Source: Longimicrobiales bacterium
GTDB lineage: Bacteria > Gemmatimonadota > Gemmatimonadetes > Longimicrobiales > Gaopeijiaceae
Reading direction: 5' to 3'
DNA length: 64,000 nucleotides
Assembly (NCBI GenBank): GCA_965203485.1
Contig: OZ241892.1
Coordinates: 2,304,001-2,368,000, forward strand
Shown here: in pieces, positions 21,251-37,242 of the stretch
Layout of the letters: each line of letters opens with the position of its first letter
Numbering within the stretch: position 1 is the first letter of the stretch
Program-made: the position numbers and the translations under genes
The notes under the pieces: generated by a model
Databases searched by the model: none
Told to the model about the DNA's origin: nothing
The model's input: the letters and a program-made list of their open reading frames with translations, nothing else

Positions 21251-22150
21251 TCAACACACGTAGTCCCGAAGGTCGTACCCCAGCTCCGTCATGACCTGTC
21301 CGTGAGCGTCCACGAGCCGCCGCGCTTGCGCCGCGGTCAAGTGGCGCCGCCATCCGCCCACCTTGCCGGAGCGAAAGAACCGGCGGCCCTGTTGCAGGTA
21401 GTTGCGGTACCCGTCTTGTTCTTCGGCACTCCGCAAGTTCGCGAAGCTCGCAAGGCCGACCGCGCGCCGCAGCCGAGCTTGGTCGGCGGCGCCTTCGAGC
21501 CCGAGGAACCGCGCCATCCTGCCCAGTTCGCCCGCTGGATTCGCCAGCATGTCCTCGTAGCGCACCGTCAGCACTGGAAAGGGCGCCGCCTGCCAGCTCG
21601 TCACGTGGCTCGACCAGTCGCTCACGATCTCCCTCAGGCGAGGCCATTCGGCATGTCCAATCTGGTGATTGGGATTGCAGAGATTGTTGACGGCGCTCTC
21701 GAAGTCGCCGCCCAGATAGAACGCCCACGAGACCGCCACGTCAAGAGGATTGCGCACCGCGTACAACGCCCCGCAAGTCGCGTCGTCCGGGAACAGCGGC
21801 TCGCCCGCCGCCGTGTCGACGAAGGTCTCGTGGGCCGGACAGTACAGGCGCACTCCGGAAGAGTCGGGTGGTTGCGCGGCCAGAACCCGGTAGACGGCGG
21901 GCCGGAGCGCGTCGGCTTCGTCCTGCGTCAAGTCCGACGCCACGAGCCCCGTGAGCCGCTCGAAGAGCGCCGGGTCGCAAGAACGCCGCCCGGGCAGCGC
22001 CTCGTCGATGTCGTTGATCGCGACGGCAGGCCCGCAGCGATCCGCCAGGAAGTTGGCCAGCAACGCCTCTCGCCACGTGGTGCCCGACCGCACGTAGCCC
22101 GCCAGCCAAACGAGCCGCCGCCCGCCGGCAACGCGACGCGACTGGATCAA
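21251..22150 (-). CDS. Sulfotransferase 1 (lasso cluster)
   Basis: 'WLAGYVRSGTTW', 'RNPLDVAVS', 'RYED', 'FFRSGKVGGW'; TTG start overlaps the kinase A stop. Confidence 0.88.
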   Translation of the reverse strand: MIQSRRVAGGRRLVWLAGYVRSGTTWREALLANFLADRCGPAVAINDIDEALPGRRSCDPALFERLTGLVASDLTQDEADALRPAVYRVLAAQPPDSSGVRLYCPAHETFVDTAAGEPLFPDDATCGALYAVRNPLDVAVSWAFYLGGDFESAVNNLCNPNHQIGHAEWPRLREIVSDWSSHVTSWQAAPFPVLTVRYEDMLANPAGELGRMARFLGLEGAADQARLRRAVGLASFANLRSAEEQDGYRNYLQQGRRFFRSGKVGGWRRHLTAAQARRLVDAHGQVMTELGYDLRDYVC

Positions 22151-23082
22151 ACCGGGTCCGGAGCCAACAGTCGCTCGGCCACGGCGTTCACGCACTGGGG
22201 CAGCCACGCGGCGTCGTTGGACAGGGGGAATCCGAAACGATGCACTTGAACACGGCGGGCAAGCGCAATCACGCGGCGGAACAGCTCCTCTTGCCCCAGA
22301 ACCGCGACGGCAACGCGCGCCTGGAAGACCACCGTCCAGATGATCCTCATCATTTCCGGGCCGGTCACGCGCTTGAAGTCCATGCGGTCCTCGTCGTCCG
22401 GTGGACAGATGTGCGATCCAAGAAAATGCATCGTTCGCAACAACCCCGACACCCGGGGCGAGCGCGTGCGCGGGGCGACATGCCACTTTTCGTAGCCTTC
22501 GACCGACCGCACCGGCTTGCGTTCCTGACCGTCGAGGCCGACGGCCGCCAATGCCCGCGGGCCCAGCCTCAGGTCGTCGCAACGCCAGCACCGCACATCG
22601 TCCCCGCTTCGGGCCGGATCGACGATCAGTACATTGTCGGCGAAGAAGGAACAACCCCGTCCGGCCAGCCCCGCCGCCAGCGTCGACTTGCCCCAAAATG
22701 GGCTGGAGCCAAAGGCGTGCACAACTGCCTCCAACGCCACGGCGCTGGCGCGGAGCGCAAGCAGTCCGCGATGCAAGACCAGAGCCGGCAGCGCGGCCTC
22801 CAGCACGAACAGCCGAACGTCCGCTTCCGCAAGCTCCGGCTTGGCTGCCCAGCGGATGCGCTCCCCGCCTTCCACCAGCAACCGCAGGCCGCACGGCAAG
22901 CGGAACAGCAGGCGGTCTCGTGCACGGGCCCAGGCCACGCCCTCGCTCTCGGGGTTCGCAAGCGCGTCCGGCACCTCGCCGCGCCGAATCGTCACGTCGG
23001 CTCCGTGGCGGCGCACCCAAGGCTGAGCCCCGGCCCCAAGGTCGATGTCGGCGTCCATCGTGAACGGAGGCGCGTCGGTCAA
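22147..23082 (-). CDS. HPr-kinase-like protein A (degenerate motifs)
   Basis: 'LRASAV', 'GKSTLAAGL..RG', 'FFADN'; paralog of kinases B and C. Confidence 0.75.
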   Translation of the reverse strand: MTDAPPFTMDADIDLGAGAQPWVRRHGADVTIRRGEVPDALANPESEGVAWARARDRLLFRLPCGLRLLVEGGERIRWAAKPELAEADVRLFVLEAALPALVLHRGLLALRASAVALEAVVHAFGSSPFWGKSTLAAGLAGRGCSFFADNVLIVDPARSGDDVRCWRCDDLRLGPRALAAVGLDGQERKPVRSVEGYEKWHVAPRTRSPRVSGLLRTMHFLGSHICPPDDEDRMDFKRVTGPEMMRIIWTVVFQARVAVAVLGQEELFRRVIALARRVQVHRFGFPLSNDAAWLPQCVNAVAERLLAPDPV

Positions 23083-23593
23083 GGCGGGCCAGCCCCAGCA
23101 GGGTCGGCCTCGCCGAACGAAGCCGGATCGAGGGCCAAGATGTCGTCGGCAAAACGATATCCGTGTGCCGCCAGTCCCGCGGCCAACGTGGACTTGCCCG
23201 CCCCCGGCGGCCCCGTGAAGGCATGGACGTCGTCTCCCGCGCGGGCCGTGTTGGCACTGGCATGCATGGGAAGCAACCTCCCAATGAGCATCCCATACGG
23301 GACCCACGATCGCGTCTTCTCCGCCATTCGCCTCATTGTTGCGGCGTCCCGGCCGGACGGCCATGCGTCAGCGAACGGTCCGGCCATCCTCCAGCGGGAA
23401 GCGGCTGCCGTTCCATGTGGTGAACGGCAAGCGGCCTTCCACGCACTGGCGCCGTGGCGCGTTCCACGCCGGCTTCGGCAAGGACTCCGGCGCCGGTCCG
23501 CGCCAGACGGTCACGTCGCTGCCATGGTCGCGCAACCAAGGCGACCCCGCCCGCTCCAAGTCCGGGTCGGCGTCGACGGTGAACGGTGCCAGC

Positions 23594-23597
<4 letters not shown>
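23079..23597 (-). pseudogene. Truncated, frameshifted copy of kinase C
   Basis: DNA and protein match to 33376-33900 ('PFTVDADPDLERAG', 'GPPGAGKSTLAAGL', 'FADDIL'); no start codon, internal stop. Confidence 0.85.
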
Positions 23598-23803
<206 letters not shown>

Positions 23804-23891: not shown

Positions 23892-24518
23892 GGAAGCGGC
23901 CCCGGAGATTGTCGCAGGCTCTTCGCTGAACCTGGTGGTTCGCGGTCTACCGCCCAGGCGCGGGAAGCGGTCGAACGCCGTCTTCAGCTCCGCGCCCGGC
24001 ACCCACTCCCCCGTCGCCGCCATGTGGGACCCCACATGTCCAATCGACACGCTCCCCAACGCGGCCAGCCAGCCCCCGGACCTGTTCCGCCTTTCGGCGC
24101 TCGAGCTCCCGGCGCACCGCCGGCTCCGTGATGCCGCTCACGGCGTTTCCCAGCTCATCTCATGCGCTTCGACCCCCCCCCCCCCCCCCCCCGAGGATGC
24201 TGCCTCCCCGACTGAGCATCCCACACGGGACCCACGATCGCGTCTTCTCCGCCATTCGCCTCATTGTTGCGGCGTCCCGGCCGGCCATGCGTCAGCGAAA
24301 CGGTCCGGCCATCCTCCAGCAGGAAGCGGCTGCCGTTCCATGTGGTGAACGGCAAGCGGCCTTCCACGCACTGGCGCCGTGGCATGTTCCACGCCGGCTT
24401 CGGCAAGGACTCCGGCGCCGGTCCGCGCCAGACGGTCACGTCGCTGCCATGGTCGCGCAACCAAGGCGACCCCGCCCGCTCCAAGTCCGGGTCGGCGTCG
24501 ACAGTGAACGGTGCCAGC

Positions 24519-24737
24519 CTAGCAGTTCATGGGTGTGGCGGCATCATCGGAGTTGGTCTTGTCAGTTGGGCTCCCGGGTTCGTAGCAACCGCCGCCGGGG
24601 TAGAAGGAGCCGATGCGGTCGAAGGGGGAACAGTCGAGCTTGGGGGGCGTCCACGGCCGTCTGGCCCCCTTGGCCGATCGTTCCTCGGTCTGCGCGCTCA
24701 ACAGGGGGGGGGGGGGGGGGGGGGGGGAGAGAGACAT
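24519..24737 (-). CDS. Lasso-type precursor A2 (GSFYPGGGCYEPGSPTDKTNSDDAATPMNC)
   Basis: Same leader; in frame through TC repeat plus C24. Confidence 0.85.
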   Translation of the reverse strand: MSLSPPPPPPPLLSAQTEERSAKGARRPWTPPKLDCSPFDRIGSFYPGGGCYEPGSPTDKTNSDDAATPMNC

Positions 24738-25443
24738 GATGGAGTTCTTTCCTTTTGCCGAACAGGTCCGAAATGCCCGAAGAAGCCAGCGGCGTCAAGG
24801 TAGCTCGGGCCGTCAAGGGAGGCAAGCAAGCGGCCCCGGAGATTGTCGCAGGCTCTTCGCTGAACCTGATGGTTCGCGGTCTACCGCCCAGCCGCGGGAA
24901 GCGGTCGAACGCCGTCTTCAGCTCCGCGCCCGGCACCACTCCCCCGTCGCCGCCATGTAGGGACCCCACATGTCCAATCGACACGCTCCCCAACGCGGCC
25001 AGCCAGCCCCCGGACCTGCTCCGCCTTCCGGCGCTCGAGCTCCCGGCGCGCCGCCGGCATCCATGATGCCGCTCACGGCGTTTCCCAGCTCATCTCATAC
25101 GCTTCGACCCCCTGAGGATGCTGGCCTCCCCGACTGAGCATCCCACACGGGACCCACGATCGCGTCTTCTCCGCCATTCGCCTCATTGTTGCGGCGTCCC
25201 GGCCGGACGGCCATGCGTCAGCGAAACGGTCCGGCCATCCTCCAGCAGGAAGCGGCTGCCGTTCCATGTGGTGAACGGCAAGCGGCCTTCCACGCACTGG
25301 CGCCGTGGCATGTTCCACGCCGGCTTCGGCAAGGACTCCGGCGCCGGTCCGCGCCAGAGGTCACGTCGCTGCCATGGTCGCGCAACCAGTGCGACCCCGC
25401 CCGCTCCAAGTCCGGGTCGGCGTCGACAGTGAACGGTGCCAGC

Positions 25444-25666
25444 CTAGCAGTTCATGGGTGTGGCGGCATCATCGGAGTTGGTCTTGTCAGTTGGGCTCCC
25501 GGGTTCGTAGCAACCGCCGCCGGGGTAGAAGGAGCCGATGCGGTCGAAGGGGGAACAGTCGAGCTTGGGGGGCGTCCACGGCCGTCTGGGCCCCTTGGCC
25601 GATCGTTCCTCGGTCTGCGCGCTCAACAGGGGGGGGGGGGGGGGGGGGGGGGAGAGAGAGAGACAT
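25444..25666 (-). CDS. Lasso-type precursor A3 (core identical to A2); ATG out of frame, in frame from TTG 25626
   Basis: 37 nt between ATG and TTG (+1 shift). Confidence 0.75.
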
Positions 25667-26375
25667 GATGGAGTTCTTCCTTTTGCCGAACAGGTCCGAA
25701 ATGCCCGAAGAAGCCAGCGGCGTCAAGGTAGCTCGGGCCGTCAAGGGAGGCAAGGAAGCGGCCCCGGAGATTGTCGCAGGCTCTTCGCTGAACTTGATGG
25801 TTCGCGGTTTGCCGCCCAAGCGCGGGCGGTCCGGTCCACGTTCTTGCGCAACGCCGCGAACAGCCTCTCGACACGAATCGTCTTGCCGCGTCCGGTCAGC
25901 CACCGGTCCATCGACACGCTCCCCAACGCGGCCAGCCAGCCCCCGGACCTGCTCCGCCTTCCGGCGCTCGAGCTCCCGGCGCGCCGCCGACTCCATGATG
26001 CCGCTCACGGCGTTTCCCAGCTCATCTCATGCGCTTCGACCCCCCGAGGATGCTGGCCTCCCCGACTGAGCATCCCACACGGGACCCACGATCGCGTCTT
26101 CTCCGCCATTCGCCTCATTGTTGCGGCGTCCCCGCCGGACGGCCATGCGTCAGCGAACGGTCCGGCCATCCTCCAGCAGGAAGCGGCTGCCGTTCCATGT
26201 GGTGAACGGCAAGCGGCCTTCCACGCACTGGCGCCGTGGCATGTTCCACGCCGGCTTCGGCAAGGACTCCGGCGCCGGTCCGCGCCAGACGGTCACGTCG
26301 CTGCCATGGTCGCGCAACCAAGGCGACCCCGCCCGCTCCAAGTCCGGGTCGGCGTCGACGGTGAACGGTGCCAGC

Positions 26376-26587
26376 CTAGCAGGTAACGCCTCCGGAAGGC
26401 TGGGAGTTGGTCTTGTATTTGGTGCTCCCGGGTTCGAAGCAGTTGCTACCGGGGTAGAAGGAGCCGATGCGGTCGAAGGGGGAACAGTCGAGCTTCGGGG
26501 GCGTCCACGGCCGTCTGGGCCCCTTGGCCGTTCCTCGGTCTGCGCGCTCAACAGGGGGGGGGGGGGGGGGGGGGGGGAGAGAGACAT
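26376..26587 (-). pseudogene. Lasso-type precursor A4 (GSFYPGSNCFEPGSTKYKTNSQPSGGVTC) with a 4-bp leader deletion
   Basis: GGCCGTTCC at ~26526 versus GGCCGATCGTTCC in the other units. Confidence 0.75.
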
Positions 26588-27296
26588 GATGGAGTTCTTT
26601 CCTTTGCCGAAGAGGTCCGAAATGCCCGAAGAAGCCAGCGGCGTCAAGGTAGCTCGGGCCGTCAAGGGAGGCAAGGAAGCGGCCCCGGAGATTGTCGCAG
26701 GCTCTTCGCTGAACTTGATGGTTCGCGGTTTGCCGCCCAAGCGCGGGCGGTCCGGTCCACGTTCTTGCGCAACGCCGCGAACAGCCTCTCGACACGAATC
26801 GTCTTGCCGCGTCCGGTCAGCCACCGGTCCATCGACACGCTCCCCAACGCGGCCAGCCAGCCCCCGGACCTGCTCCGCCTTCCGGCGCTCGAGCTCCCGG
26901 CGCGCCGCCGACTCCATGATGCCGCTCACGGCGTTTCCCAGCTCATCTCATGCGCTTCGACCCCCCGAGGATGCTGGCCTCCCCGACTGAGCATCCCACA
27001 CGGGACCCACGATCGCGTCTTCTCCGCCATTCGCCTCATTGTTGCGGCGTCCCCGCCGGACGGCCATGCGTCAGCGAACGGTCCGGCCATCCTCCAGCAG
27101 GAAGCGGCTGCCGTTCCATGTGGTGAACGGCAAGCGGCCTTCCACGCACTGGCGCCGTGGCATGTTCCACGCCGGCTTCGGCAAGGACTCCGGCGCCGGT
27201 CCGCGCCAGACGGTCACGTCGCTGCCATGGTCGCGCAACCAAGGCGACCCCGCCCGCTCCAAGTCCGGGTCGGCGTCGACGGTGAACGGTGCCAGC

Positions 27297-27513
27297 CTAG
27301 CAGGTAACGCCTCCGGAAGGCTGGGAGTTGGTCTTGTATTTGGTGCTCCCGGGTTCGAAGCAGTTGCTACCGGGGTAGAAGGAGCCGATGCGGTCGAAGG
27401 GGGAACAGTCGAGCTTCGGGGGCGTCCACGGCCGTCTGGGCCCCTTGGCCGATCGTTCCTCGGTCTGCGCGCTCAACAAGGGGGGGGGGGGGGGGGGGGG
27501 GGGAGAGAGACAT
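27297..27513 (-). CDS. Lasso-type precursor A5 (core identical to A4); ATG out of frame, in frame from TTG 27479
   Basis: 34 nt between ATG and the conserved TTG (+1 shift). Confidence 0.75.
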
Positions 27514-27625
27514 GATGGAGTTCTTTCCTTTGCCGAAGAGGTCCGAAATGCCCGAAGAAGCCAGCGGCGTCAAGGTAGCTCGGGCCGTCAAAGAAGGCAA
27601 GGAAGCGGCCCCGGAGATTGTCGCA

Positions 27626-28100
27626 GGCTCTTCGCTGAACCTGATGGTTCGCGGTCTACCGCCCAGGCGCGGGCGGTCCGGTCCACGTTCTTGCGCAACG
27701 CCGCGAACGCCAGCTTCTCGGCACGAGTCTTGCCGCGTCCGGTCGGCCACCGGCAACGCGTCCTCGCGAGCGCGGCGCTGTCCTGGGCCAGCAGCTCGCG
27801 GTGTTCGGCGTGCCGCGCCTTGTCCACCGCGTCCGCCTGGTGCTCGGCCACATGGAAGCGGTCGAACGCCGTCTTCAGCTCCGCGCCCGCCACCCACTCC
27901 CCCGTCGCCGCCATGTTAGGGATACCACATGTCCATCGACACGCTCTCCAACGCGGCCAGCCAGCCCCCGGACCTGCTCCGCCTTCCGGCACTCGAGCCC
28001 CCGGCGCACCGCCGACTCCATGATGCCGCTCACGGCGTTTCCCAGCTCATCTCATGCCCCCCCCCCCCCCCCCCCCCCCCCGAGGATGCTGCCTCCCCGA
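27626..28100 (-). mobile_element. Longest internal ISL3 transposase fragment (unit 5)
   Basis: 'AFDRFHVAEH..DAVDKAR..EHRELL' and 'RTARAWAV' are ISL3 transposase signatures; GGCTCTTCG IR at 27626. Confidence 0.85.
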
Positions 28101-28410
28101 CTGAGCATCCCACACGGGACCCACGATCGCGTCTTCTCCGCCATTCGCCTCATTGTTGCGGCGTCCCGGCCGGACGGCCATGCGTCAGCGAACGGTCCGG
28201 CCATCCTCCAGCAGGAAGCGGTTGCCGTTCCATGTGGTGAACAGCAAGCGGCCTTCCACGCACTGGCGCCGTGGCGCGTTCCACGCCGGCTTCGGCAAGG
28301 ACTCCGGCGCCGGTCCGCGCCAGACGGTCACGTCGCTGCCATGGTCGCGCAACCAGTGCGACCCCGCCCGCTCCAAGTCCGGGTCGGCGTCGACGGTGAA
28401 CGGTGCCAGC

Positions 28411-28629
28411 CTAGCAGTTCAAAGGGATTCCTCCTAGATTAGTGGAGTTGGTCTTGTCAGTTGGGCTCCCGGGTTCGTAGCAACCGCTGCCGGGATAGAA
28501 GGAGCCGATGCGGTCGAAGGGGGAACAGTCGAGCTTGGGGGGCGTCCACGGCCGTCTGGGCCCCTTGGCCGATCGTTCCTCGGTCTGCACGCTCAACAGG
28601 GGGGGGGGGGGGGGGGGGGGGGGAGACAT
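28411..28629 (-). CDS. Lasso-type precursor A6 (GSFYPGSGCYEPGSPTDKTNSTNLGGIPLNC)
   Basis: Same leader; in frame through C25. Confidence 0.85.
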   Translation of the reverse strand: MSPPPPPPPPLLSVQTEERSAKGPRRPWTPPKLDCSPFDRIGSFYPGSGCYEPGSPTDKTNSTNLGGIPLNC

Positions 28630-28743
28630 GCTTTGGAGTTCTTTCCTTTGCCGAAGAGGTCCGAAATGCCCGAAGAAGCCAGCGGCATCAAGGTAGCTCG
28701 GGCCGTCAAAGAAGGCAAGGAAGCGGCCCCGGAGATTGTCGCA

Positions 28744-29394
28744 GGCTCTTCGCTGAGCCTGGTGGTTCGCGGTCCACCGCCCAGGCGTGGGCGGTCCGGT
28801 CCACATTCTTGCGCAACGCCGCGAACAGCCTCTCGGCACGAATCGTCTTGCCGCGTCCGGTCAGCCACCGGTCCATCGACACGCTCTCCAACGCGGCCAG
28901 CCAGCCCCTGGACCTGCTCCGCCTTCCGGCGCTCGAGCTCCCGGCGCACCGCCGGCTCCATGATGCCGCTCACGGCGTTTTCCAGCTCATCTCATGCGCT
29001 TCGACCCCCCGAGGATGCGGGCCTCCCCGAGCCACGCCGCCACCTCGTCCTCGAACGCCGCCGTGTACCTCGACCTGTCCGCCGCCCAGGGCATGGAGAC
29101 CGTTCTTCACCCCGTGCTCTGGAGACTCGACCAGATGCCACCACTCCCGCTCCCGAGCGTCGTAGCCCGGACACGGCTGGCCGCGCTCGGGACACGTCAG
29201 AGGCTCGCCCGACCGCCTCGCCGCGCACACGCGCCTCCTTTCAGCACCGGGTCCCCCTCGACCCCCTCCACCTTCCAGCCCGGCCCCAACGCCATCAAGC
29301 TCCTGCACCCACTTCGCATCTCCAACCTCGCCTCCTCGGTTCATGGTCCATGTCGCCCCCGATCCCACCCAGCCACACCAATATGGGAAGCGCC
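28744..29394 (-). mobile_element. Internally deleted ISL3-family IS relic retaining both ends
   Basis: IRs GGCTCTTCGC (28744) and GGCGCTTCCC (reverse complement ending 29394); flanks TTGTCGCA/TGTTCGCA resemble an 8-bp TSD; frameshifted 'WKVEGVE', 'CPGYD.RER.W.HL', 'PEHGV', 'MPWA...YTAAFE', 'GIME.AVRR'. Confidence 0.85.
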
Positions 29395-29497
29395 TGTTCG
29401 CAGTGGCCCAGCACCGGGCGGACCGAGTAGCTTTGCGTGTCTCTCGCATCAGATTCCGCCGGACGGACGTCCGGCAAGGCATCCGGCAGGCATTGTC

Positions 29498-30442
29498 ATG
29501 CAAGCTCCCTTCACGGTCGACGCCGACATCGACTTGGGCGTGCGAGCCGCTCCCTGGATCCGCGCCCACGGCGCCGACGTGGTCGTCCGGCGCGGGCCGG
29601 TGCCGACGGTCCTCCCCAACCCGGCGCGGTGCAGTGTCGCGTGTCAGTGCGCTGAAAACCAAGTGCTGATCACGGTCCCTTGCGGCATCCGCTTCTTGGT
29701 GGAGGGCGGCGAGTCGATTCGCTACGCCGTGGACGAAGGCCGAGGGGCGGCAGAGGTGGACTTGCGGACATTCCTCGTCGGCGCCGCTTGGCCGGCCCTG
29801 GCGCTGCAACGGGGCTTCTTGCCACTGCACGCAAGCGCAGTGAGCCGCCGCGGCAACGTGCATGGCTTCGCCGCCGGGGCGGGCGGCGGCAAGTCCACGA
29901 TGGCAGCGGCTCTCGCCGGGCGGGGCTGGTCGTTCTTCGCCGACGACGTGCTGCTCATTGCTCCCGCACCGCCCGGACAGGAAGTCCTTTGCCATTCGCT
30001 TGGCGACCTCAAGCTTCCGCGCGAGGGACTGGCCGCCGTCGGAGCGTCCGCCCGGGGGCCGGTCCGAGATGTCGACAGTGGGATCGCCTTGCACGCCAGC
30101 TTCAAGGTGTATGCTGAACCACGCCAGTGGTCGTCGGGAATCGGCGGCCGACTCGCGACGCTCCATGGATTGGAAGGGTGGGGCTTTCCGGAGGCCGATC
30201 CAACCCGAATTGAGCGGTTGACCGGCCGCCGTGCCGCAGAGTTCATGTGGGGAGCGGTGTACAACTCTACCCTGGCGCACGAGATCGCGAGACAACGGCG
30301 GTTGTACCAAGCGGTCGCGGCCACCAGCCGACAGGTCGTTATGTCAAAGTTCCATTTCAGCCGCGTTGCCAATCGTTTCGAGGAGATCGTGGAGAGGCTG
30401 GCTCGGGACTTGTCCGCCGTCGCGGCCGCGGGGCCCCAGTGA
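29498..30442 (+). CDS. HPr-kinase-like protein B (lasso peptide kinase type)
   Basis: 'LPLHASAV', 'GGGKST', 'FFADD'. Confidence 0.85.
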   Translation: MQAPFTVDADIDLGVRAAPWIRAHGADVVVRRGPVPTVLPNPARCSVACQCAENQVLITVPCGIRFLVEGGESIRYAVDEGRGAAEVDLRTFLVGAAWPALALQRGFLPLHASAVSRRGNVHGFAAGAGGGKSTMAAALAGRGWSFFADDVLLIAPAPPGQEVLCHSLGDLKLPREGLAAVGASARGPVRDVDSGIALHASFKVYAEPRQWSSGIGGRLATLHGLEGWGFPEADPTRIERLTGRRAAEFMWGAVYNSTLAHEIARQRRLYQAVAATSRQVVMSKFHFSRVANRFEEIVERLARDLSAVAAAGPQ

Positions 30443-32992: not shown

Positions 32993-33249
32993 AGCTTGCC
33001 GGCCCTTGCCCGCAACTTCGCCGAGGCGGTGGCCATGGGTACGCAATGATTCGGCATCGGCACCTTCTAGCCCCGCGATGGTTGCTATGAGCCGGGCAGC
33101 GGCACGACCAAGCCCGGTCGTTGGCGTTTGGTGTTACGTTCCTGGTCATGTACACCCGATGCCAAACAGGGCCTGATGAACGTCGTCTCCCGCCAAGTTC
33201 CGTCGCGCAGGCGCCAAATCCGTTTGTCCGCGGGCTGCTAGGTGCGCAC

Positions 33250-33330
33250 CGCGACTGACGCGCCTCCCTTCACGATGGACGCCGACATCGGCCTTGGTGC
33301 CGGGGCCGCGCCACGCGTGCGCCGTCACGT
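33250..33330 (+). pseudogene. 5' remnant of a kinase A paralog
   Basis: 'TDAPPFTMDADIGLGAGA.P.VRRH' matches the kinase A N-terminus. Confidence 0.7.
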
Positions 33331-33348
33331 CATGCGCCAACTTTCACC

Positions 33349-34311
33349 GTGAACACCAAGGTCGGGACGCAGTGCGTGGCTAGGCCGGTGCCGTTCACCG
33401 TCGGCGCCGACCTCGACTTGGAGCGGGCGGGGCCGCATTGGTTGCGCGACCATGGCAGCGACGTGGCCATCCGGCACGGACCGGTACCCGAATCCTTGCC
33501 GAAGCCGACCTGGACCACTCCGCGGTGCCAGGGCGTCGAAGGCCGCTTGCTCTTCACCACGTGGAACGGCAGCCGCTTCCTGCTGGAGGGCGGCCGGAGC
33601 GTTCGCTACGCATGGCCGCCCGGCCAGGACGCCGCAACAATGAGGCGAATGGCGGAGAACACGATCTTGGGTCCCGTGTGGGCGATGCTAGCCATGCAAA
33701 GGGGTCTGCTTCCGATGCATGCCGGCGCCAACACGGCCCGCGCGGGAGACGAAGTCCATGCCTTCGCGGGGCCGTCCGGGGCGGGAAAGTCCACGATGGC
33801 CGCGGGACTGGCGGCACGCGGACATCCTTTTTTTTCCGACGACGTCTTGATCCTCGACCCGGCCTCGTTCAGCGAGTCCGCCCTCTGCTGGGGCCTTCCG
33901 CGACTGAGGTTGTGGCCCAGCGCCCTGACCATGCTCGGCGGGATCGAATCCGGCCCCCGCGTACGCTCGTTCAGCCCCGCCAAGAAGGCGGACGCCGACC
34001 CGCGACACGTGTCGGCCGTGCCGACCGGCCGCCTGCGAAGCTTGTTCGTGCTGGCAAACCGCGGCGGTGAGGCCGAGGCGAAGGCGATAAACGTTGAACC
34101 CCTACGCGGCGGCCGCGCCATCGGGGCGTGGATGGGCGCCGTCATGAGGCGACCGGTGGCGCGCGCGATGCTGGAACAGCGACAGTTGCTGGAATGGGCG
34201 GCGTCGGCGGTCAAGCAAGTGGACGTGTTTGCTTTGCGCCGCTCGATGGCGCACGAGCGCTTCGCCGACGACACCCGTTTCTTGGTGCAGATGCTGGATG
34301 GCGCCGCTTGA
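33349..34311 (+). CDS. HPr-kinase-like protein C (intact homolog of the cassette fragments)
   Basis: 'LPMHAGA', 'GPSGAGKST', 'FFSDD'; start may be GTG 33376. Confidence 0.88.
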   Translation: MNTKVGTQCVARPVPFTVGADLDLERAGPHWLRDHGSDVAIRHGPVPESLPKPTWTTPRCQGVEGRLLFTTWNGSRFLLEGGRSVRYAWPPGQDAATMRRMAENTILGPVWAMLAMQRGLLPMHAGANTARAGDEVHAFAGPSGAGKSTMAAGLAARGHPFFSDDVLILDPASFSESALCWGLPRLRLWPSALTMLGGIESGPRVRSFSPAKKADADPRHVSAVPTGRLRSLFVLANRGGEAEAKAINVEPLRGGRAIGAWMGAVMRRPVARAMLEQRQLLEWAASAVKQVDVFALRRSMAHERFADDTRFLVQMLDGAA

Positions 34312-34329
34312 ATCGACTCCAGCGGCAAC

Positions 34330-34745
34330 TGCGCGTCTGCATGCCCTAAGCCCCACAGGGCTCCGTTCCGCTTGCGGTGCGGTCTTCGGCTGGTGGTGGA
34401 TGGCGTTGGGGCAAGTCGACGCTGGCGGCGGCGTTGTCCGGGCGGGTTGTCCGCTTCGGCGACAGCGTCCCGATCGTCGACCAGGCCCGTGCGGAGGCGA
34501 TGCGCTGCGCTGACGTTGCTACGACCTGAAGCTGGGCCCGCGGGGCTTGGCGGCCGGCGGCCTCGGCGATCGGGAACGCAAGCCGGTGCGGGAGGCCGAG
34601 GACTGCGGGAAGTGGCATGTCGCACCGCATGCGCGGTCGCCTCGCGTGTCGGGGTTGTTGCGGACAGTGTAATTTCTTGAGTCGCACAGCTACCCGTCGA
34701 ACCAGGAGGACCGCATGAAATTCGAGCGCGTGGCTGCCAGCGCGG
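34330..34745 (+). pseudogene. Decayed central part of a kinase A paralog
   Basis: Frameshifted matches 'FRLRCGLRLVV', 'GKSTLAA', 'LKLGPRGLAA', 'KWHVAPHARSPRVSGLLRT'. Confidence 0.8.
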
Positions 34746-36999: not shown

Positions 37000-37242
37000 C
37001 TAGTTGCAGAAAGGGCCTATTGTGTTGTCGGACGCCGTCTTGTTCGTGGCGCTGCCCGGCTCGAAGCAACCATCGCCAGGATACATGGCGCCGACGCCGA
37101 TTATCACGTGGCTGCGATTCAGCTTGGGCGGCGTCCGCCGGCGCTCTAGGATCCTTGGACGATCGGTCCCTCTGGGTCTGCACGCTCGCGTGACGCCAGA
37201 CCGCTCGACGAGCAGCTTGACGCCCCTGCTCGCCTTCCCCAT
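37000..37242 (-). CDS. Divergent lasso-type precursor A7 (GAMYPGDGCFEPGSATNKTASDNTIGPFCN)
   Basis: 'TPPKL', 'YPGxGCxEPGS..xKTxS', near-terminal Cys; AGGA SD before the ATG. Confidence 0.75.
   Translation of the reverse strand: MGKASRGVKLLVERSGVTRACRPRGTDRPRILERRRTPPKLNRSHVIIGVGAMYPGDGCFEPGSATNKTASDNTIGPFCN

Follow-up and report, generated by a model that had tools for sequence, protein, structure and literature searches.

Six consecutive precursor genes for peptides that are ribosomally synthesised and modified post-translationally (RiPPs), in a 64,000-nucleotide stretch of a Longimicrobiales bacterium genome (contig OZ241892.1, positions 2,304,001 to 2,368,000; hereafter the window), are each preceded by the right end of an insertion sequence (IS) of the ISL3 family. 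We consider it probable that these ends are passengers in a tandem amplification of the precursor unit. The remnants represent a previously undescribed ISL3 member, dead and co-amplified with the precursors, and there is no sign of a present role for its ends. Positions below follow the numbering of the window unless prefixed G000, which denotes the source genome assembly (3,557,016 bp, 95% complete).

The array is marked by a 13-mer, GGCTCTTCGCTGA, starting at 23917, 24851, 25779, 26700, 27626 and 28744. All six positions of the original prediction were recovered, and a search of both strands of the entire 3,557,016-bp genome returned 6/6 matches in the array and none elsewhere. Because the transposase is read from the minus strand, the repeated ends are right ends (right inverted repeats, IRR). 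In minus-strand order, a unit comprises the right part of the IS, ~110 bp of upstream DNA, a precursor gene of 69-73 codons and a ~310-bp 5' fragment of an HPr-kinase-like gene, amounting to 921-1,114 bp (typically ~930 bp), with the IS tip ~110 bp upstream of every precursor start codon.

Assignment to the ISL3 family, as first proposed, is well founded. The frame at 27588-27992 on the minus strand matches PF01610 (DDE_Tnp_ISL3) with 32.4 bits (cut-off 23, E-value 1.1e-7), and across common pieces the remnants are 88-93% identical in nucleotides to an intact ISL3 element of another genome, here called E, which also served as reference for the deletion coordinates. A scan with the unit-5 remnant returned 15 loci, and E occupies the seven of these (L054-L060, on a single contig of a Longimicrobiales metagenome-assembled genome, MAG) that are 84% identical in protein. 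It measures 1,393-1,394 bp, with an open reading frame (ORF) of ~410 codons that scores 316 bits against NF033550 (cut-off 180). ISL3 elements carry imperfect terminal inverted repeats that begin with GG. The IRR and the left inverted repeat (IRL) of the array differ from the ends of E by 2-4 edits in 30 nt, the GGCG start of the left end included; a mutation of the IRL at position 4 was considered and rejected, since E also starts with GGCG. The 8-bp flanks of E are perfect duplicates at 3/7 loci, agree at 7/8 positions in one and are unmatched in three (L055, L056 and L058). L055 carries on its left the flank found on the right of L056, a sign that copies of E may have rearranged with each other.

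Within the array, the unit-6 remnant (28744-29394, minus strand, 651 bp) is the sole copy with both ends and is 92% identical to E over 645 aligned nt; blastn also matches it to E in pieces. The IRL (29365-29394, minus strand), with the GGCG start shared with E, terminates at 29394 and occurs once, as had been claimed. Immediately outside lie the two halves of a target duplication, TTGTCGCA on the precursor side (28736-28743, plus strand), decayed and copied before every IRR, and TGTTCGCA on the other (29395-29402, plus strand). The predicted near-duplication of these flanks holds: they match at 6/8 positions, a level reached by 1.07% of random genomic 8-mer pairs, and E makes 8-bp duplications. 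Transposase motifs were also said to lie beside each end. Remnants do adjoin all six, but since each retains different pieces the quoted motifs are missing from some units, with DRFHV..AVDK only in the 27626 remnant, exact TARAWA in 3/6 and exact GIME.AVRR in 2/6.

The pattern of deletions places the copying of the remnant within its decay. The unit-6 remnant lacks E263-307, 531-673, 712-888 and 990-1362, four large internal deletions that together with frameshifts leave no intact ~410-aa transposase ORF. Two of these gaps are common to all six remnants: E531-673, which was lost at a perfect 10-nt repeat, and E990-1362, whose absence reduces the right tip to 31 nt. Set against intact E, the deletions are nested. 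A deletion X (E790-972) is found in unit 1 (23917-24213, with a C20 run at 24173) and unit 2 (24851-25135), and a deletion Y (E712-888) in unit 6 and in units 3 (25779-26067) and 4 (26700-26988), the latter two being identical. Unit 5 (27626-28102, with a C25 run at 28057) retains both segments (E663-988), and thus the IRR tip together with the longest interior, including the DRFH region (91% identical to E over 327 nt); all these remnants lie on the minus strand. With two deletions common to all units, and X and Y confined to subsets, decay occurred both before and after copying, so that the proposed order of decay followed by co-amplification is correct for the shared deletions and incomplete for X and Y.

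The five junctions between units are all one and the same join, from IS position 29028 to kinase position 28103 at a CCTCCC..GAGC microhomology. This point lies 367 nt inside the IS from its left end, and hence the junction as it stands is not a transposase product. The kinase 5' fragment joined here to the IS interior (28103-28410, minus strand, ~310 bp) is 86% identical to a full paralogue at 33349-34311 and is repeated at 26989, 26068, 25136 and 24214. Precursor 1 is followed by a longer kinase fragment (23091-23593, minus strand), truncated and frameshifted (tblastn, residues 11-111 and 88-177 in two frames); an intact kinase gene at this place was thereby rejected. Near-identical pairs of remnants (1 and 2 similar, 3 and 4 identical) and of cores (2 and 3, 4 and 5, identical) are offset by half a unit, units 3 and 4 share an 839-nt exact repeat at a shift of 921, and informative sites form a mosaic along the unit, a sign of gene conversion in addition to crossover. 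Judged from these sequences, the array would have grown in the order 1-2-4-6: one unit became two (Y and non-Y), a two-unit duplication gave four, and two single-unit unequal crossovers gave six.

The sequences show that one ISL3 copy went in with a lasso-type precursor gene on one side and a divergent HPr-kinase-like gene on the other, generating the 8-bp target duplication, and that most of its transposase was lost by microhomology deletions, two of them common to all copies, leaving the 31-nt right tip. An illegitimate join at a short microhomology, linking the IS interior to the downstream kinase gene, would then have duplicated the right part of the IS with the promoter, the precursor and the kinase 5' part. 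Unequal homologous recombination through the 1-2-4-6 series, with patchy gene conversion, may have followed while the IS continued to decay (X, Y and the G/C-run expansions). The IRR would be present in every unit only because it is located between the junction and the promoter; it would neither provide a promoter nor be mobilised, the dead IS and kinase DNA would serve as recombination homology, and selection or local mutability would act on the precursor cores. The insertion of an IS upstream of the precursor and its co-amplification, as originally predicted, are supported. Duplication at microhomology followed by RecA-driven amplification is a standard two-step route, as set out in the available part of PMC11721125, and IS-aided remodelling of amplicons is documented in that of PMC8763031.

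Several observations weigh against this history. Contigs from four of the five listed public read runs (handles X3 to X5 below), which show presence and not absence, include in X5, a metagenome run from another study, a different IS/kinase join, 29147 to 28259 (depth 9.1, 108 letters on the short side). Having more IS and less kinase, it is non-nested with the G000 junction and neither derives from the other, so the present junction may reflect later trimming rather than the first join: either there were two separate duplications, or a longer unit, perhaps with a whole IS at the junction, was trimmed to give both joins. In addition, the 31-nt IRR tip persists directly beside a 373-bp deletion, the history derives from one assembly in which the unit-3/4 duplicate reaches only 1x depth in X3, and the only break in the full-length ISL3 of G000 described below is a G lost from a G run, possibly an error of the assembly. 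A different start, which we rate as possible but doubtful, is that the IS itself initiated the array. A second copy or one-ended transposition would have put an IRL into the kinase gene, recombination between the copies would have produced an initial duplication whose junction contained a whole IS, and lineage-specific trimming would have come later. Both non-nested junctions do end inside the IS with microhomology, like intra-IS deletions, the intact relative E occupies 7 loci on a single MAG contig, and IS-flanked tandem amplification and IS-aided remodelling are on record (in the accessible parts of PMC11721125 and PMC8763031, respectively). On the other hand, no IRL is found at any of the five G000 junctions and no IS piece left of 23917, and the IS, as the large dispensable DNA just upstream of the promoter, is also where the ends of two independent illegitimate duplications would tend to fall. 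That the array is largely an assembly artefact is highly improbable. Units 3 and 4 share 839 identical nt, long G runs are hard to sequence, and the Y-type remnant is at 1x in X3; but the units have distinct deletions and four distinct cores, and the public runs contain X-type and Y-type remnants, the G000 junction, as a loose end at 29030, and, at ~2x depth, the unit-2/3 core. The X3 depths are 232.6 for that core (~2x) and 120.1 for the Y remnant (~1x) versus 113.3 for single-copy sequence, and X3 has no unit-6-specific letters across 28365-28916; these data suggest that arrays differ between samples.

The retained ends could also be maintained for a function. In one such account, which we regard as very unlikely, the single IRL pairs with any of the six IRRs as a non-autonomous, MITE-like element moved or excised in trans, with up to five precursor cassettes carried. 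Unit 6 possesses both ends at 2-4 edits from those of E, ISL3-like elements form circles and carry passenger genes according to the available text of PMC5559704, and G000 holds A-type derivatives with both ends, of 1,008 and 390 bp. These two derivatives lack matching flanks, though, and no ISL3 ORF in G000, where PF01610 has five matches, is either cognate or intact. Its only full-length ISL3 (G000:C1:3425619-3426992) is of a different type, 70% identical to E in amino acids, with a perfect 8-bp duplication, a one-base frameshift and different inverted repeats after the first 9-10 nt. The remaining ISL3 pieces in G000 are all fragments, so that the suggested check for an intact ISL3 with the same inverted repeat found none there. 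The second-type ISL3 has three intact copies in genome G001 and many deleted derivatives in G000. Furthermore, the array IRL occurs once in G000, the IRR has just four scattered 3-edit matches outside the array, and G000 has no other copy of the unit-6 derivative, hence no dispersed copies with fresh target duplications; the target duplication of unit 6 has itself decayed. Between units, the 31-nt IRR tip has accumulated 0.062 substitutions per site and the shared IS interior 0.034, with 4/31 versus 10/122 segregating sites (Fisher p 0.48), and as the tip is no more conserved than the interior, there is no constraint on the IRR. Recognition of the ends in trans, as initially entertained, is thus unsupported, and such activity appears at most conceivable. 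Even less credit is due to the notion that each precursor is driven by an outward promoter exapted from the IS tip, which was kept per unit for that reason. The tip does lie ~110 bp upstream of every start codon, and activation of silent genes by ISL3 elements is reported in work cited in the available part of PMC5559704. Yet the sole promoter-like site, TTGCCT-17-TACCTT (28690-28718, minus strand, relaxed scan), lies wholly outside the IS, starting 26 bp beyond its tip at the same place in all six units, and is common to IS-free loci in another genus; a strict sigma-70 scan gave 0 matches, and the tip is not conserved. The relaxed pattern TTGC..-17-TA.CTT, picked after inspecting these sequences, is found in 6/6 units and in 5/5 IS-free precursor loci of G125, a genome of another genus with related precursor loci, versus 1.2% of random 170-nt windows, although the 6 + 5 copies amount to two lineages. 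ISL3 matches were found in 0/9 regions fetched from G125 and G172. With precursors in G125 that lack the IS but have the promoter-like site and a poly-C tract, the IS is not needed for the cassette layout.

An IS-free orthologous locus, proposed as a further check, was not found among assembled genomes: a DNA search matched 10/61, outside G000 only with IS-type or short matches, a precursor profile matched 0/400 other genomes, and collection scans gave 0/36 candidates and 1/116, the latter spurious on inspection. In X5, a contig at depth 6.9 runs directly from 28740 to 29396 with no IS between them, and its match to the right flank covers 974 nt at 96.6% identity; as an empty site this is a weak hint, since the short side has 20 letters at an 85% threshold, a kind of match that is often unreliable. 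X4 has a joint of 28407-29493 at depth 3.65. One run carrying array sequence is a sponge metagenome, and no RNA run is among those listed as carrying the locus.

The six precursors, all on the minus strand, encode four distinct peptide cores. Precursors 1 (23594-23803, 69 aa), 2 (24519-24737, 72 aa) and 6 (28411-28629, through C25, core ...SFYPGSGCYEPGSPTDKTNSTNLGGIPLNC) are in frame. In this assembly, precursors 3 (25444-25666, core as precursor 2) and 5 (27297-27513) run out of frame at the poly-C tract, and precursor 4 (26376-26587, core as precursor 5) is broken by a 4-nt leader deletion. Mean pairwise substitutions are 0.015 for both the kinase fragment and the leader, 0.034 for the IS interior, 0.136 for the core middle and ~0.40 for the core tail, which also carries indels. 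Variable sites number 16/60 in the core middle versus 10/122 in the IS interior (p 0.0014, overstated because the units are related), and most codon changes that separate distinct core types are non-synonymous (e.g. 6 versus 1; one pair 3 versus 4). Diversifying selection on the cores, with conversion homogenising the flanks, is the likely cause of this pattern. Variation driven by a diversity-generating retroelement was rejected, with 0 matches to PF00078 (reverse transcriptase) in the 95% complete G000. Precursor-like sequences also occur outside the array at 37003-37242 (minus strand) and 33053-33112 (plus strand); one adjoins B1 and has a leader without Trp, the other has an in-frame stop.

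Directly after the start codon, all six array precursors have 24-27 C (23773, 24704, 25629, 26554, 27480 and 28599), and five of five G125 precursors have 15-20 (L042:19350, L043:1582, L046:1064 and 12397, L047:14625). Across both sets some are in frame and some not, although tract lengths in assemblies are uncertain. These runs are a possible phase-variation switch on RiPP precursors, and literature searches, which left out most subscription journals, found no publication on phase variation of such genes. G/C homopolymers in G000 are bimodal, with none of 12-13 nt and 42 of 14-30 nt, 8 of the 42 in the array. A G5-6 run inside the dead IS has expanded to 20 in unit 1 and 25 in unit 5, the natural homologue P0002 has a poly-Pro leader, and an X5 contig spans the poly-C tract with 19 gap letters. 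The tracts could thus have arisen without selection, by the runaway lengthening of a Pro-coding run. Loss of mismatch repair was rejected as a cause of the long runs, MutS_I and MutL_C being predicted from domain matches in 5/5 genomes including G000. The MutS_I match at 2517068 is preceded at ~130 bp by a C20 run (G000:C1:2516940), which lies in mutS or next to it. It is a rather speculative prospect that a self-shuffling peptide library grew out of the ISL3 insertion, whose DNA would have made the first duplication and would still provide recombination homology, each unit with its own promoter and poly-C on/off switch, so that strains would vary in how many hypervariable lasso-type cores they have, in what order, and in which of them are expressed. 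If true, the poly-C-after-ATG design common to another genus would be a phase-variable RiPP precursor system.

The window further encodes two sulfotransferases, a P450, an asparagine-synthase-like cyclase, a PqqD protein above its Pfam cut-off, a nucleotidyltransferase and a lasso B2 protein (NF033537, 78.5 bits, cut-off 33). The best match of the C protein is lasso cyclase NF033535, at 157 bits under its cut-off of 525. The precursors are lasso-like in their WTPPKL leader and Gly/Pro/Glu core, and in lasso peptides the ring-closing Asp/Glu usually stands at a distance of 7-9. Here, a core beginning with Tyr is needed to place the invariant Glu at residue 8; counted from Ser it is residue 10. 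Lasso precursors have a Thr two residues before the core, as stated in the available part of PMC12670498; none is found near the likely cleavage site here, and the precursors are therefore not filed as classical lasso peptides. HPr-kinase-like paralogues, three or more of them full and several partial, lie together with two sulfotransferases in 22150-23600, 29498-30442 and 33255-34690; the cluster has repeatedly duplicated its modules. A related cluster at L042-L043 (G125:C1:146000-168000) holds eight close P450 paralogues in ~19 kb together with two kinases, a sulfotransferase and a cyclase, a tandem amplification of tailoring genes without ISL3.

As a mobile-element event the array is ordinary, a dead IS carried along in tandem amplification. 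The value of the remnant lies in its use as a built-in neutral yardstick, with IS DNA 3-6% apart versus 14% and ~40% for the cores, along an ordered duplication history that the leftover IS ends record. Since neutral IS DNA and cores share the same six copies, the rate and mode of RiPP core diversification become measurable in a single locus. The growth of G runs in the dead IS is likewise the control needed before precursor poly-C tracts are called adaptive switches. We found no publication describing an IS remnant repeated in a RiPP precursor array, in a search of titles and abstract openings with most subscription journals outside it.

Multi-precursor RiPP libraries such as patE and the prochlorosins combine a conserved leader with hypervariable cores. 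The array shares this feature, but every unit also brings a promoter-like site of its own, together with an IS tip and a long poly-C after the start codon. Congruent with the ISL3 family (PF01610, NF033550), it contains transposase pieces, GG-starting inverted ends and an 8-bp target duplication, while differing in its non-coding 290-650-bp remnants, five of them without a left end, and in the lack of a cognate transposase in the genome. The ISL3-like fosB transposon, in the available text of PMC5559704, similarly joins ISL3 ends with a cargo gene present several times. In that case an intact element bounded by perfect 25-bp inverted repeats encloses the gene, its copies occupy separate sites and circles were shown, whereas here the gene stands outside a dead element in tandem copies. 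Paeninodin-type lasso clusters with a tailoring kinase, as presented in the accessible part of PMC9266682, correspond to the window in split B1/B2, asparagine-synthase-like C, kinase-like and nucleotidyltransferase genes; the array cores, in contrast, end in Cys, with no C-terminal Ser and no Thr at -2, and the window adds sulfotransferases and a P450, with a cyclase below the curated cut-off. Finally, tandem amplification with remodelling, in the available portions of PMC11721125 and PMC8763031, has in common with the array a single microhomology junction, unequal recombination and trimming of co-amplified DNA; unlike the amplifications described there, the array lasted until four distinct cores arose, its unit trimmed to ~930 bp around a 70-codon gene.

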